Positions 31,003 through 62,773 of a stretch of 64,000 nucleotides of DNA are shown here, in pieces. This DNA comes from Thermodesulfobacteriota bacterium. GTDB taxonomy: Bacteria; Desulfobacterota; Binatia; Bin18. The stretch lies in contig OZ219926.1 of the NCBI GenBank assembly GCA_964291405.2, positions 1,408,001-1,472,000 of the forward strand, read 5' to 3'. A model generated the notes under the pieces. It was not told where the DNA came from, searched no databases, and was given only the letters and a program-made list of their open reading frames with translations. Position 1 is the first letter of the stretch; the number at the start of each line of letters is the position of its first letter. A program made the position numbers and the translations under genes.

Positions 31003-32094
31003 TTATCCGAGTGTATTCACCGCAGATGGGAACGTGTTGATCCCCAGCGCTTCCCGAAAATCCGCGGTGGGTTGCACGACCATCGCATCGACGCTGATGC
31101 CAATCGCATTGGCGACGCGGTCCAGCATGCTGAAGTTGCCGCCGATGATCGACGCCGTCGTGACCGCCTCGGGACCTAATCGCTCGGCAATGGCATCCCG
31201 TGCGGCCGCCAGTTCTGCGGTATCGGGTTTCATCAAAGCACCGGCGAATCTCACGAGTTCGCACCCGTGTTCCACCCCGCTGTCAATACGTGCATCGATC
31301 GCGCCAGCTAACTCGTAGCTTCGATCGTGGGCTTTTCCGCTCTCCCGGAGCAGATGGGCATGCCACGTGGTTCAGTAGAAACACAGGTTCTGTTCCGAAA
31401 CCTTGGTTGCGACGAGTTCTATCTGTGCTCGCGAAAGTGCGTGGTCTGATGTGGCGTGAAAATTGAGCAAATGCTCAGCTCCGAAATACTGTTGACTGAC
31501 CAGGTTAATCACGCGGCGGGCTTCATCCGGGACGAGGCTCACGGCGCGAAAAATATTCCCCGCCGGACTTTCTCCATATAACGATTCGGCTAATGCGCCA
31601 CCTGCCGGAGCGCTGGGGACACTCGCGGTAAAGAATCCCTCATCGACGGCTTCGGCGGGGCGTTCGAAAGAGGGGAGCGTATCGTCGGCGAGCTCCGGTA
31701 ATTTTCGGGGTGGTATGCCAAGACCGCGGGCAAAGACGTCAAGATTGGAGAGTCGCGACACCAGCGAGACGATTTCAACATACGCGCCCTCGCTCACACC
31801 CTGGGCTTGGATGTTCTGGCAAAACTTGCGATCGATGTTTTGCGAATCAACCGCCACCGCCCGTGCCAATCGCACTGCCGCGTCAGGGAGTTTGGCCTGG
31901 GCGACCAGCTTCTCATCGTCGACCGATTCTTGTAAGCCCTGTTCGCATTGAGCGATACGCGCAGTGGCGGCAATGGCGGTTCTCTGTGCGGCGGTACCCC
32001 ACGTACCGCCGCGAGCATAGGACTGCATTTCGTCGACATGTAGGGTTTCAACCGTAGGAGAAACGGGGTAGCGCGAATCTGCGTAAAGCGGCAT
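31003..32094 (-). CDS. AhpD-related probable selenoprotein (363 aa; Sec at TGA 31372-31374; CFYU motif)
   Basis: 240-aa ORF ends LSRAQIELVATKVSEQNLCFY-TGA; the frame continues without stops (TTWHAHLLRESG...) into the 90-aa ORF to TAA at 31003; SECIS-like hairpin follows the TGA. Confidence 0.82.
31326..31371 (-). promoter_or_regulatory. Putative bacterial SECIS element
   Basis: mRNA after UGA: lower stem CGUGG/CCACG, upper stem UCUGCUC/GAGCGGA, loop CGGGA beginning 24 nt after the UGA. Confidence 0.65.
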
Positions 32095-32274
32095 TGGAAT
32101 GAACCCTCCTCTCTCGAAATTGTACTTCGCTTATCAGTCATTTCAATAAACGAGGAAATGCCGTCGTGCAAATGCGCTCGTGTTGGGTTTACCTCTTGAC
32201 AAGCCGCTCTACGGGTCGACAATGCCTCTCAAGAGGGCGAACCCCGACAACAACAGAGGACGGAGGAGCTTACC

Positions 32275-33072
32275 ATGAGCACAATCTTGCGTTACCTTCA
32301 CCACCCCGCATCACAGCCGTGCCGCGCAGCGCATCAGTTCATGCTGGAGAACGACATTCCCTTTGAACTCGAGTTGGTCGATATCACCACCGATATCAAC
32401 GAGCGGCCGGAGTTCCGGGACAAGTACAACCCGACGGGGCAGGTGCCGATTCTCGTGGATGGTGACTTTGTAATCTGGGAGAGTGCGGCCATTGCCTTCT
32501 ACTTGAACGAGAAGTTTGAATGTCCCGCCCACTGGTTCGGGCGCGACACCCGGCAAAGAGGGCTTATTCAGCAGTTTCTGCAATGGTACGCCTACACGCT
32601 CCGCCTCGGCGGAGGCGCGTTCCACTGGACGATCTTCGCCCCAATGATCTACGGCTATGATAAGGACTTTTCCGCGGAGATAAAGAAAGGGCGCTATATT
32701 CTGTATGAGTCCCTTGACCTCCTAGAGACCTATTGGCTCAAAGACCGTGCTTATGTGTGCGGCGACGAGATCAGCTATGCGGACCTAGCCGCCTACCAGG
32801 ACCTCGTTTCCCATGATGCCGGGAAGATCATTCCGGACGGGGTGTGGCAGGAGCACCCTAAGGTCAGGGCATGGTTCGAGACAGTGGCCGCACGTCCGCA
32901 CGCAAAGACGGTAAGTGCGTGGCAATATGAGAACGTTGGAAAAATACTGAACGACGGTGTGAAATTTGAGTTTAGGCGGAAAACCGCGGTCTTAAAGGGA
33001 ACAGAGGTCCACAGCGGCCACAACCACGGCATTCTTTACGCCGGCCAGGACGATAGCTACTTAAAGGAGTAG
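32275..33072 (+). CDS. dcmA: Dichloromethane (dihalomethane) dehalogenase, theta-class GST
   Basis: Near-continuous match to recalled DcmA, especially Methylophilus DM11 type: LRYLHHPASQPCRA, YNPTGQVPILVDG, WYAYTLRLGGGAFHWTIFAPMIYGYDKDF, HAKTVSAWQYENV, RKTAVLKGTEV.SGHN; catalytic Ser retained. Confidence 0.9.
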   Translation: MSTILRYLHHPASQPCRAAHQFMLENDIPFELELVDITTDINERPEFRDKYNPTGQVPILVDGDFVIWESAAIAFYLNEKFECPAHWFGRDTRQRGLIQQFLQWYAYTLRLGGGAFHWTIFAPMIYGYDKDFSAEIKKGRYILYESLDLLETYWLKDRAYVCGDEISYADLAAYQDLVSHDAGKIIPDGVWQEHPKVRAWFETVAARPHAKTVSAWQYENVGKILNDGVKFEFRRKTAVLKGTEVHSGHNHGILYAGQDDSYLKE

Positions 33073-46839: not shown

Positions 46840-47262
46840 ATGGCTGGCCGATTAGCCGGAAAAGTAGCAGTGGTGACTGGCGGCAGTTCAGGTATAGGCC
46901 GGGCTACCGCGCAGATTTTTGCCCGTGAAGGGGCCAAGGTTGTTGTGGCCGATGTCGGAGTTGAGGGCGGCGCAGAAACCGTGCGCCTGATTACCGGCTC
47001 GGGTGGAGAAGCAACATTTGTCCAAACCGATGTCGGGCAAATGGAAATCCCGGTGCCGATGACTCAGGCATTAGCCACAGACGGCAAGCTGTATCGGGTC
47101 ACAGCAGACGGCCAACCCCATCTCGTGGCCGCAGGCTTTATCAATCCAACCGGCGTCCTGGTTGTTGATGACGCCGTGTGGGTCTCGGATATCAATGGGG
47201 ACTTTATTGCGGGTAAGCGTGAGCTGCCGGAAGGCTTTGTGGTGAAAGTGCAGGCGCAATAA
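46840..47262 (+). pseudogene. In-frame chimera: SDR N-terminus joined to an unrelated beta-propeller-like C-terminus
   Basis: First about 65 aa match the SDRs at 40843 and 52546 up to QTDV; the remainder (GKLYRVTADG...AAGFINPTGV....VWVSD) is not SDR-like; no YxxxK. Confidence 0.7.
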
Positions 47263-54865: not shown

Positions 54866-55660
54866 ATGATCAAGAAAGCCTACGCCGACACTCCGAGTGG
54901 CCAGATGCACTACTACTACGGCGGACCGCAGAAAAAGCCGCCGATCATTTTTCTGCACCAGAACGTTAGCAGCGCAAAGGCCTTCGAACCCACCCTCCGA
55001 TTGCTGATTGACCAGTTTCACTGTATCGCCGTGGACCTGCCCGGCTTCGGAGGCTCCTTTGACCCGCCCGAATTCGATTCGATCAGTACGCTCACTGGCT
55101 ACACCATGGAGTTCCTCGACACGCTCGGTTTCGAGAAATTTCACCTCTGCGGCAGCCACACCGGAGCCGGGATGTCCGCGGAAATATCGTCGCTCTATCC
55201 CGACCGGGCGCTGTCCTGCATGATGATCGGTGCGTTGTTGTTTACCGAGGAACAATCCGCGCGGTTCCGGAAGGAGTTCAGCGGCTCCGCCGCCCCGGGC
55301 TTCGACACCGCCTACCTGAAAGAGACCTGGGACTACGTCTACGACATCGGCGGCAAGCTTGATCTAGACAATATGCACGACGAGTTCACCGGGGCGTTAC
55401 GCAACTGGAGGGTTCGCGACATGATCTTCCGCTGCGTTTGGGATTACCCCTTTGGCCAGTTCATCCCGAAGATCCAATGCCCAACTCTCTTGATTTGCGC
55501 CCCGGACGATGTTCTCTATCCGGGTCACCAGAACACTGCGGCGACGATGCCGCAGGCGAAGGCCATCGATGTCAAAGGTATGGACATGGAACCGAACCTC
55601 GATCCGGAAGGGGTGAGCCGGGGCATCATCGATTTTCTGACCGAGAACAACCTGAGCTGA
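54866..55660 (+). CDS. Alpha/beta hydrolase fold protein (GSHTG elbow)
   Basis: FLHQ, AVDLPGFGGS, CPTLLI; tandem paralogue of the next gene. Confidence 0.85.
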   Translation: MIKKAYADTPSGQMHYYYGGPQKKPPIIFLHQNVSSAKAFEPTLRLLIDQFHCIAVDLPGFGGSFDPPEFDSISTLTGYTMEFLDTLGFEKFHLCGSHTGAGMSAEISSLYPDRALSCMMIGALLFTEEQSARFRKEFSGSAAPGFDTAYLKETWDYVYDIGGKLDLDNMHDEFTGALRNWRVRDMIFRCVWDYPFGQFIPKIQCPTLLICAPDDVLYPGHQNTAATMPQAKAIDVKGMDMEPNLDPEGVSRGIIDFLTENNLS

Positions 55661-55710
55661 GCGCCGGCGGCGACCGGTCGGTACGCTCGGCCGTAGGGAG
55701 ACACGAATTG

Positions 55711-56505
55711 ATGATCAAGAAAGCCTACGCAGATACGCCTAGTGGTCAAATGCACTATTACCATGGTGGCCCGCAGGAAAAGCCGCCGATTGTGTTTCTG
55801 CACCAGAACGTCAGTGGCGCGAAGGGGTATGAACGCACGCTCGAGAAGTTGATCGACCGCTGTCATTGCATTGCGGTCGACCTGCCCGGCTTCGGTGGCT
55901 CCTTTGACCCGCCGGAGTTCCATTCGATCAGCACGCTCACCCAATACACGATGGACTTTCTCGATACGCTCGGTATCGAGAAGTTCCATGCCTTCGGCAA
56001 TCACACGGGTGCCGGCATGGCCGCCGAAATGGCGTCGCTCTATCCCGAGCGCGTGCTGTCTTGCATGATGGTCGGTGCACTGTTGCTGACCGAGGAACAG
56101 GCCGCGCCCTACCGCGACGAGTTCAGCGGCTCCGTCGGGCCGAGCCACGAAGCCGAATACCTCAAAATCACCTGGGACTACATCTACAACCTGGGCGGTA
56201 ATCGCGATCTAGACAACATGAACGACGAGTTCTCAGGAGCACTGCGGGCCTGGAAGGTTCGCGGCATGATCTATCGATGCGTGTGGGATTACCGCTTCGA
56301 CCTGTTCATTCAGGACATCAAGTGCCCGACCTTGTTGATGTGCGCTCCAGACGATGTGCTCTACCTCGGCCACCAAAACACCGCCGCCGCCATGCCAAAG
56401 GCGAAGGCCATCGATGTCAAAGGCACAAATTTCGAGCCATTCCTTGATCCGGAAGGAGTGAGCCAAGGCGTCATCGATTTCCTGACCGAGAACAACCTGA
56501 GCTAA
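55711..56505 (+). CDS. Alpha/beta hydrolase fold protein (GNHTG elbow)
   Basis: Start at ATG 55711 after GGGAG RBS; 264 aa, collinear with the upstream paralogue. Confidence 0.85.
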   Translation: MIKKAYADTPSGQMHYYHGGPQEKPPIVFLHQNVSGAKGYERTLEKLIDRCHCIAVDLPGFGGSFDPPEFHSISTLTQYTMDFLDTLGIEKFHAFGNHTGAGMAAEMASLYPERVLSCMMVGALLLTEEQAAPYRDEFSGSVGPSHEAEYLKITWDYIYNLGGNRDLDNMNDEFSGALRAWKVRGMIYRCVWDYRFDLFIQDIKCPTLLMCAPDDVLYLGHQNTAAAMPKAKAIDVKGTNFEPFLDPEGVSQGVIDFLTENNLS

Positions 56506-62191: not shown

Positions 62192-62773
62192 ATGTGTGCA
62201 ATGAAACGCCTCACCCGTGAGGAACTCCCGCCCGACTTGACCGCGCTGTACGACGAGTGTATGCGCGAGGCCGGGGACGCGCGGTTTGTCGCGGCTGGCG
62301 CCAACGCACCCGAACTGCTCGATTGGTACTTCAACAGCTTCTACAAGCGGGTGTTCTACGAGGGCCGCGTCGATGTGCGCACCAAGGAGCTGCTCCGCCT
62401 CAAACTCTCCAAGACCCACGGCTGCTTTTTATGAAACAGGGTCAACACCGTCTCGGCGAGACGGGCCGGCCTGACCACGGAACAGATTGATGCGCTTCCG
62501 GACGATATCGACAACGAGGTGTTTTCGCCACGCGACCGGGCGGTACTCAAGCTGTGCGAGCAGATGGTGCTCACCAACCTCCACGGGTATATGACCGAGG
62601 AGCTGCATCACGAACTGGCCGCGCATTTCAGCGATGGAGAGATCTTCGAGCTCGGGGTGACGATGGCCGTGCTGTGCGGGTTTGCGAAGTTCCTCTTTTG
62701 CTTTGATTTGGCGGACCGCGAAACCACATGTCCGATCCACCGCCCCGCCGAAGAAATGCGGAGCAGTCTGTGA
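62192..62773 (+). CDS. CMD/AhpD-family probable selenoprotein (193 aa; Sec at TGA 62432-62434; CFLU motif)
   Basis: AAGGAG RBS; ...RVDVRTKELLRLKLSKTHGCFL-TGA-NRVNTVSARRAGLTTEQIDAL...FSPRDRAVLKLCEQM...LAAHFSDGEIFELG in one frame; SECIS-like hairpin after the TGA. Confidence 0.85.
62435..62476 (+). promoter_or_regulatory. Putative bacterial SECIS element
   Basis: Upper stem CCGTCTC/GAGACGG with loop GGC beginning 20 nt after the TGA; lower stem GGTCA/TGACC. Confidence 0.7.

Follow-up and report, generated by a model that had tools for sequence, protein, structure and literature searches.

The minus strand of contig OZ219926.1 (Thermodesulfobacteriota bacterium, class Binatia) carries an AhpD-related gene at positions 31003-32094 of the 64,000-nucleotide stretch analysed here, which as a whole is called the window below. 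Its reading frame is interrupted once, by a TGA at codon 241. This is very probably an intact gene for a selenocysteine (Sec)-containing thiol/selenol oxidoreductase of the AhpD-related CFYUT family, in which UGA-241 is decoded as Sec. The gene would be rendered by standard annotation as a truncated protein followed by a fragment. The evidence that carries our reading is comparative: a curated family model runs across the TGA, the TGA is present at the same codon in all 79 related loci, and the codons of a hairpin located directly downstream are frozen.

A single open reading frame interrupted by one TGA

TGA-241 is the sole interruption of the minus-strand open reading frame (ORF), as judged by translation: 122 sense codons follow it before the TAA stop (Table 1). 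The TGA falls on the second position of a CxxC-type motif, C238-F-Y-U241, and His245 follows four residues on. The initial annotation of this region, made from the sequence alone, had placed a Sec codon at the second CxxC position in the context NLCFY-U-TTWH, counted 122 further open codons, and described a histidine at the usual spacing together with a stem-loop 24 nucleotides (nt) downstream with a G near the start of its loop. Each of these features was found where it had been placed, the loop being CGGGA with G at loop position 2, and the span given, 31003-32094, is exactly that of the coding sequence (CDS) plus stop. It had also anticipated that standard annotation would produce two broken genes. 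Indeed, the ORF list made with translation table 11 splits the gene into a piece of 240 amino acids (aa) (31372..32094) and a GTG-started piece of 90 aa (31003..31275), and database homologues are cut at the same place, as described below.

An open frame around a TGA and a hairpin, taken alone, are not beyond chance. In the window (59% G+C), 70 in-frame TGAs are flanked by 40 or more open codons both before and after; among these mechanical candidates, only the gene described here and one at 62432 appeared coding. What takes the case beyond chance is the comparative evidence named above. TGA ends 19 of 50 window genes (TAG ends 20 and TAA 11), and the codon is therefore not reassigned. A scan for sigma-70-like consensus sequences returned 2 sites, where 0.8 were expected; the match upstream of the gene is given in Table 1 together with the other features.

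Table 1. Coordinates of the features described in the text (positions in the window)
Feature	Position	Strand	Remarks
AhpD-related selenoprotein CDS (NF041238 family)	31006..32094	-	363 residues, TGA-241 read as Sec
Start codon ATG	32094..32092	-	Sequence reading, translation
True stop TAA	31005..31003	-	Sequence reading, translation
In-frame TGA, Sec codon 241	31374..31372	-	Context NLCFY-U-TTWH
Catalytic helix-hairpin motif E226-x11-C238-F-Y240-U241-x3-H245	31360..31419	-	AhpD proton-relay positions
SECIS-like hairpin	31336..31354	-	7-bp stem UCUGCUC/GAGCGGA, apical loop CGGGA
Extended lower helix CGUGG/CCACG around the hairpin	31326..31367	-	Minimum-energy fold
N-terminal domain, residues 1-160	31615..32094	-	Second, non-catalytic AhpD-like helical fold suggested by the domain model
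Shine-Dalgarno-like AGGAGG	32105..32110	-	10 nt upstream of ATG, read directly
Sigma-70-like promoter match TTGAAA-16-TACAAT, 10/12	32119..32146	-	Consensus match only
AhpD/CMD-type gene, 193 aa, motif HGCFL-U-N	62192..62770	+	TGA at 62432..62434; ends at a second TGA

The product belongs to a known selenoprotein family

The read-through protein matched the NCBIfam model NF041238 (AhpD_rel_CFYUT) with 301.5 bits (cut-off 175, E = 9e-90), over residues 13-356 on profile positions 3-356 of 357, that is, across the TGA. NF041238 is an equivalog model named 'alkylhydroperoxidase-related (seleno)protein'. The CFYUT-type family model that the initial annotation had mentioned is therefore real, and its curated cut-off is passed. 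The CFYUT-type pattern was matched in 76 of the 79 related loci described in the next section, as CFYUT in 74, CLYUT in one (L053) and CFYUV in one (L069). The TIGR01926 model gave 38.5 bits, below its cut-off of 81.8 bits. The protein is a distant AhpD relative, covered by its own model rather than by the general domain models.

The initial annotation was also right that AhpD-like selenoproteins were already known: CxxU forms are in print since 2005 and 2008, according to the available portions of the two papers concerned (PMC1088965, PMC2398784). The earlier one includes, in the available text, a 'hypothetical protein 1' of the Sargasso Sea selenoproteome, known from 4 Sec sequences; a conserved CXXU motif, homologues with Cys and a predicted selenocysteine insertion sequence (SECIS) are given for it (Zhang, Fomenko & Gladyshev 2005, PMC1088965). 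A review table from 2026 equates NF041238 with this hypothetical protein 1, motif CxxU (PMC13188914). The protein described here agrees with it in length and in having both domains, the CFY-U-T motif, a single Sec, a hairpin downstream and Cys homologues; nothing of substance differs from that family, and the present copy comes from a Candidatus Binatia-like genome. A second published family, the single-domain AhpD-like 1 (COG2128/TIGR01926), is known from marine metagenomes, and the accessible part of the Global Ocean Sampling (GOS) paper gives 299 Sec sequences with motif CxxU for it (PMC2398784). Its sequences are homologous to the C-terminal domain and carry CxxU in the same helix-hairpin. 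In contrast, the protein described here is twice as long and has an additional N-terminal domain, apparently AhpD-like as well. An AhpD-like family is also catalogued in BSepDB, as stated in the accessible part of its description (PMC13326102). The string 'CFYUT' itself was not found in the literature searched. The gene is very probably a genuine selenoprotein gene, and a new member of a family that was published in 2005 and is covered by a curated model.

The TGA is conserved and is replaced by Cys in full-length homologues

Genome contigs were scanned with a seed pattern taken from an N-terminal peptide far from the TGA. The best 80 of 199 confirmed relatives were retained, corresponding to 79 loci. 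Exactly one in-frame stop was present per locus, always TGA and always at the CxxU position (79 of 79). The identity of these loci to the query ranges from 95% down to about 30%, and their record titles include Candidatus Binatia, Gammaproteobacteria, Pseudomonadales, Myxococcota, Acidobacteria, Chloroflexota, Acidimicrobiia and others. One locus (L011) ends with its contig just past the TGA. Two others (L071, L072) lie outside the position filter of the pattern; the TGA is nonetheless there, followed by sequence that agrees with the family alignment. Ratios of non-synonymous to synonymous substitution (dN/dS), calculated for 8 close pairs, were 0.14-0.44 after the TGA and 0.12-0.23 before it. 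The downstream part is therefore under selection at the protein level.

Protein databases give a different picture of the same family. A word-indexed protein search returned 90 homologues, nearly all of about 240 aa and covering 66% of the query. Their C-termini read ...CFY in 88 cases and ...CMY in one, whereas the remaining one, encoded on an 855-nt contig, has a different end. These homologues of about 240 aa are gene-caller truncations. To this was added an exhaustive profile search, which found 3416 representatives at E <= 0.001, of which the best 150 were listed and 148 new ones examined. Of these, 111 end right after C-x-[Y/F]. Full-length forms with Cys at position 241 number 28 when defined by C-x-Y-C-x3-H and 32 by the looser C-x-x-C-x3-H. 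Gly occupies the position in a single representative (P0120) and Trp in none of the 148. Eight representatives ended otherwise on the first pass: three of them (P0140, P0165, P0211) are Cys forms, counted within the 32, one (P0097) has CxxC but no His, and four (P0098, P0183, P0189, P0220) were not classified by the looser pattern. The initial annotation had asked for homologues with Cys or TGA at this codon, and both kinds were found. It had regarded homologues that end here, or that have Trp here, as evidence against a Sec codon; the frame instead continues and is conserved in the 79 loci, and the residues observed in place of Sec are Cys and, once, Gly.

Two diverged TGA-bearing CFYUT paralogues were observed in each of three Binatia genomes (L006/L035 on OX638322.1, L008/L036 on OY763426.1 and L012/L021 on CBDEVZ010000008.1), about 37-58% identical to the query. 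The source genome may likewise hold another CFYUT copy outside the window. One database protein of 226 aa (P0078), to which GST_N Pfam domains are assigned by precomputed annotation, shares 86% identity with the final third of the truncated part and also ends ...CFY; it may represent a fused or chimeric ORF, in which a glutathione S-transferase (GST) is joined to the CFYUT family.

A hairpin downstream of the UGA is a likely SECIS

In the predicted fold, the arms of the hairpin lie at 31354..31348 and 31342..31336, and its loop (31347..31343) starts 24 nt past the A of the UGA. This distance falls in the range of 16-37 nt allowed by the bSECISearch model. Downstream sequences from the related loci, 75 of them non-identical, align without gaps. 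The inner 5 base pairs (bp) of the 7-bp structure can form in 66-75 of these 75 sequences, and the structure as a whole is paired in 85.3% of cells, compared to 31-57% in slid registers. The extended lower helix is present only in the closest relatives and not family-wide, and a bulged U occurs in the fold of some relatives (L025).

A stronger signal than the pairing comes from the codons of the hairpin, whose three conserved residues show restricted synonymous usage. Of 77 sequences, 76 have CTC for L249. R250 is encoded by CGT (50) or CGG (24) and never by CGC, though CGC makes up 44% of the Arg codons in these genes, and S252 by AGC (61) or AGT (14) and never by TCN. By comparison, 17 other conserved Leu, Ser and Arg columns use 4-6 codons each. 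The two residues are themselves tied to the Sec forms: R250 is present in 64 and S252 in 65 of the 67 Sec forms aligned, compared to 10 and 13, respectively, of the 32 Cys forms. This fits a constraint on the RNA that is linked to the TGA.

Taken together, position, pairing and codon restriction suggest that the hairpin is likely a SECIS. Like the SECIS of Escherichia coli fdhF, it lies within the coding sequence directly after the UGA and has a small apical loop with a G; its sequence differs from that of fdhF, and SelB is predicted to bind it. A small G-containing apical loop is a feature named for the bacterial SECIS in the available text of the 2005 paper (PMC1088965).

Protein fold and catalytic centre

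E226, C238, Y240, U241 and H245 are invariant in the 67 aligned Sec forms. The proton relay of AhpD proteins, as given in the accessible part of PMC3141380, consists of Glu118, Cys130, His132, Cys133 and His137 in Mycobacterium tuberculosis AhpD and of Glu36, Cys48, Tyr50, Cys51 and His55 in PA0269 of Pseudomonas aeruginosa. The same spacing, Glu-x11-Cys-x-(His/Tyr)-Cys-x3-His, is present here with Sec replacing the second Cys, and Tyr stands at the third CxxC position as in PA0269.

A search of the PDB with the family profile matched Deinococcus radiodurans 6k40 (E = 3.7e-15), followed by 2oyo, 3c1l and 2pfx, in all cases over the C-terminal half only. The CxxC of 6k40 aligns to CFYU. M. tuberculosis AhpD (1gu9) was a marginal match (E = 0.036), and no sequence-level match to the N-terminal domain was obtained in this search. 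The AlphaFold model of the protein is all helical (mean pLDDT 96.2, pTM 0.95), and helices 222-235 and 239-255 form the catalytic hairpin. Submitted to Foldseek, the model aligned over about 180 residues to 6k40, Bmp8 (6ohi, 6ohj), 2pfx and 3c1l, with TMt of 0.60-0.70, probability of about 1.0 and E of 0.06-0.4. The AhpD structures of M. tuberculosis (1knc, 1gu9), PA0269 (2o4d) and D. radiodurans (6k40) thus share the all-helical fold and the relay spacing with the protein described here, which differs from them by Sec in place of the second Cys, by two domains per chain and by the absence of an adjacent ahpC.

The N-terminal domain (residues 1-160), modelled alone, reached a pLDDT of 90.3. 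Its best Foldseek matches were 2prr, 6k40 and 3c1l (probability 0.99-1.00, TMq 0.49-0.54, E 0.017-0.11), and an hhalign comparison of the N-terminal with the C-terminal half gave a probability of 14% (E = 0.0019). The fold search weakly suggests that this domain is AhpD-like. As modelled, two AhpD-like folds follow each other in one chain, and only the second would be catalytic in the clade of the window protein. The sole full-length Foldseek match was Sestrin2 (5t0n, 5dj4, 9lvj), which is likewise one chain of two AhpD-like helical halves (364-390 columns, TMq 0.43-0.47, probability 0.82-0.90). Sestrin2 is eukaryotic, however, and with 11-12% identity, a root-mean-square deviation of 11-16 A and E of 0.22-0.33 the resemblance is architectural only.

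In more distant members of the family, a further CxxC (consensus C-x-x-C-x-x-R-x-x-A-L-S-P) is located in the N-terminal domain, in the part that corresponds to about residues 49-56 of the window protein. It is lacking in the clade of the window protein, which has only C50. The extra motif may constitute a second redox or metal site in the distant members.

Proposed mechanism

Gene structure, conservation and fold are shown by the present analysis; Sec insertion and the chemistry are what we infer. By the paradigm of E. coli fdhF, the hairpin, 17-38 nt past the UGA, would recruit SelB with Sec-tRNA(Sec) to the ribosome. U241 would then stand where AhpD has the second Cys of its CxxC, in a protein whose N-terminal domain is, in this clade, devoid of a redox motif. 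That second Cys corresponds to Cys133, the nucleophile of M. tuberculosis AhpD. The selenolate of U241 could attack an oxidised partner, such as the disulfide or sulfenate of a peroxiredoxin-type protein, an organic hydroperoxide or some other electrophile. C238 would resolve the adduct to an intramolecular selenenylsulfide, which a thiol donor would finally re-reduce.

Genomic context and a second CxxU gene in the window

The region is 92-96% identical at the nucleotide level to, and syntenic with, loci of Candidatus Binatia metagenome-assembled genomes. The divergently transcribed neighbour of the selenoprotein gene is a GST (32275..33072). Across 80 loci, the adjoining genes include a GST in 19 and a luciferase-like monooxygenase in 12. 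The 52 window ORFs scanned form a dense catabolic island and encode mostly oxygenases and hydrolases: 5 luciferase-like monooxygenases, 2 cytochromes P450, 2 flavoproteins resembling flavin-containing or Baeyer-Villiger monooxygenases (FMO/BVMO-like), 3 GSTs, a Rieske oxygenase and short-chain dehydrogenases/reductases (SDRs), together with 3 amidohydrolases, 2 beta-lactamase-family proteins, 2 PF10118 hydrolases, an epoxide hydrolase and a sigma-54 activator.

A second AhpD/CMD-type gene with an in-frame TGA in a CxxU motif is located towards the end of the window (62192..62770, Table 1). No gene appears at these positions in the table-11 ORF list. Its product scores 35.7 bits against TIGR01926 across the TGA, below the cut-off. 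Cys occupies the TGA position in 80 of 89 full-length homologues, the best being 57% identical. A hairpin of 7 bp, with a loop GGC starting 20 nt past the UGA, is predicted, with a z-score of only -0.69. This gene likely encodes a second selenoprotein. Since the window holds this second CxxU gene and Binatia genomes hold two TGA paralogues, the presence of Sec machinery in the source genome is indirectly supported. The Binatia-like source organism very probably uses Sec, as indicated by the two CxxU genes of the window.

Three further observations concern the surrounding DNA. The intergenic segment 30826..30999, 3' of the selenoprotein gene, is missing in L001 and L004, the closest relatives, and partly present in L007, L026 and L032. 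Being unrepeated in the window and found in part in other relatives, it is just a variable spacer. An SDR fragment of 140 aa (46840..47262, plus strand), of which most listed SDR models cover the first ~65-80 residues, is probably a truncated or frameshifted gene. Two alpha/beta-hydrolase ORFs on the plus strand (54866..55660 and 55438..56505) lie in different frames and share about 220 nt, for which a mis-called start of the second ORF or a frameshift may be responsible.

Evidence against the Sec reading and alternative explanations

Several results weigh against an AhpD-related selenoprotein with a functional SECIS. At the level of the protein, the general domain models Pfam CMD (PF02627; 19 vs 23) and TIGR00778 (ahpD_dom; 26.4 vs 27.8) both remained below their cut-offs, and Foldseek E-values ranged from 0.017 to 1.3, none being <= 0.001. 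As for the hairpin, it is no more stable than dinucleotide shuffles (z = -0.57, with 50 of 200 shuffles folding as well), and its two outer pairs are unpaired in 31-34 of the 75 sequences. The covariation score of 0.132 was reached by 378 of 500 shuffled alignments, whose mean was 0.140; in the consensus computed by RNAalifold from the 75 sequences, just 3 pairs, all invariant, were left and the covariation term was -0.04, and no Rfam match was obtained in the whole window at gathering thresholds. The contrast between Sec and Cys forms at R250 and S252 is weakened by the fact that the Cys forms are also more divergent. Because covariation is not above that of shuffles, the case for a SECIS rests on position, pairing and frozen codons and not on compensatory changes. 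Concerning the genomic context, no selA, selB or selD was present among the genes of the 64-kb window, and no tRNA, hence no tRNA-Sec (selC), was found in it by ARAGORN. No peroxiredoxin (AhpC/TSA-type) was detected among the 52 window ORFs scanned, unlike in M. tuberculosis, where an adjacent ahpC is the functional partner. Across the 80 loci no neighbour is conserved family-wide and no peroxiredoxin cluster appears among the conserved neighbours, so that no partner can be inferred from gene order.

The most serious alternative, although an unlikely one, leaves Sec in place and assigns the protein a different thiol/selenol chemistry, either a reductive dehalogenation as in Bmp8 or a glutathione-linked reduction together with the neighbouring GST. 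Bmp8, a debrominase of the CMD fold, is among the top Foldseek matches (6ohi, 6ohj; TMt 0.64-0.67), no AhpC-type gene was found in the window, the window is rich in oxygenases and hydrolases, and the 19 loci with an adjoining GST include five co-directional cases in distant members. However, identity to Bmp8 is only 17-18%, compared to 27% to the AhpD of 6k40, all five proton-relay positions of AhpD are kept, and the GST neighbour is absent from 61 of the 80 loci.

A more specific proposal of this kind, which we consider similarly doubtful, is that the CFYUT protein is a catabolic, glutathione-linked selenol reductase paired with the divergent GST, and not a housekeeping antioxidant. The non-catalytic N-terminal domain would then bind a partner or substrate and hold the catalytic C-terminal AhpD domain. 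The surrounding oxygenases would supply the targets, whether organic hydroperoxides, organohalide intermediates or glutathione adducts. The near-universal retention of Sec in the family would then reflect a chemistry that depends on a selenolate, as that of deiodinases does, with Bmp8 as an analogue.

It is less probable still that the TGA is a real stop, giving a product of 240 residues without the second redox residue, and that the 122 codons beyond it either are no longer translated, as in a pseudogene, or belong to a small gene of their own, as in a split gene. One could expect such an arrangement from the agreement of the gene callers, which end 88 of 90 database homologues at ...CFY, from the GTG-started ORF of 90 aa downstream, from the use of TGA as an ordinary stop in this genome and from the lack of Sec machinery within the window. 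Instead, the break falls on this very codon in each of the 79 loci, in several phyla, and the frame behind it is open in every case and under purifying selection (dN/dS given above). Both the family model and the alignment to AhpD of the PDB cross the TGA, the remainder of the AhpD fold, His245 included, lies beyond it, and full-length Cys forms exist.

Least probable of all is translation of the TGA as Trp, Cys or Gly, through a suppressor tRNA, near-cognate decoding or a changed code: this would likewise keep the downstream frame selected, and one full-length homologue does have Gly (P0120), but TGA still serves as a stop in the window genes, homologues without TGA have Cys and never Trp, the hairpin codons at 24-36 nt from the UGA are fixed at synonymous sites in the TGA-bearing forms only, as expected of a SECIS, and CxxU has been published as a Sec motif of AhpD-like proteins, as far as the available portions of PMC1088965 and PMC2398784 go.

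Significance for the family and for genome annotation

General knowledge of selenoproteins is unchanged by this gene, and its interest is modest, the family having been known since 2005 with a curated model. No published account of selenoproteins or of Sec in Binatota was found in the literature searched. The gene should be annotated as one selenoprotein of 363 residues and not as a hypothetical protein of 240 aa plus a fragment. This matters beyond the present locus: the protein collections searched hold almost only the truncated form (88 of 90 matches in the word-indexed search and 111 of 148 representatives in the profile search), which hides the catalytic His and half of the fold from downstream analyses. 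The family is at the same time a clean example of synonymous codons, and even the residues R250 and S252, being frozen in the Sec forms only, by what is likely a SECIS located in a coding region.

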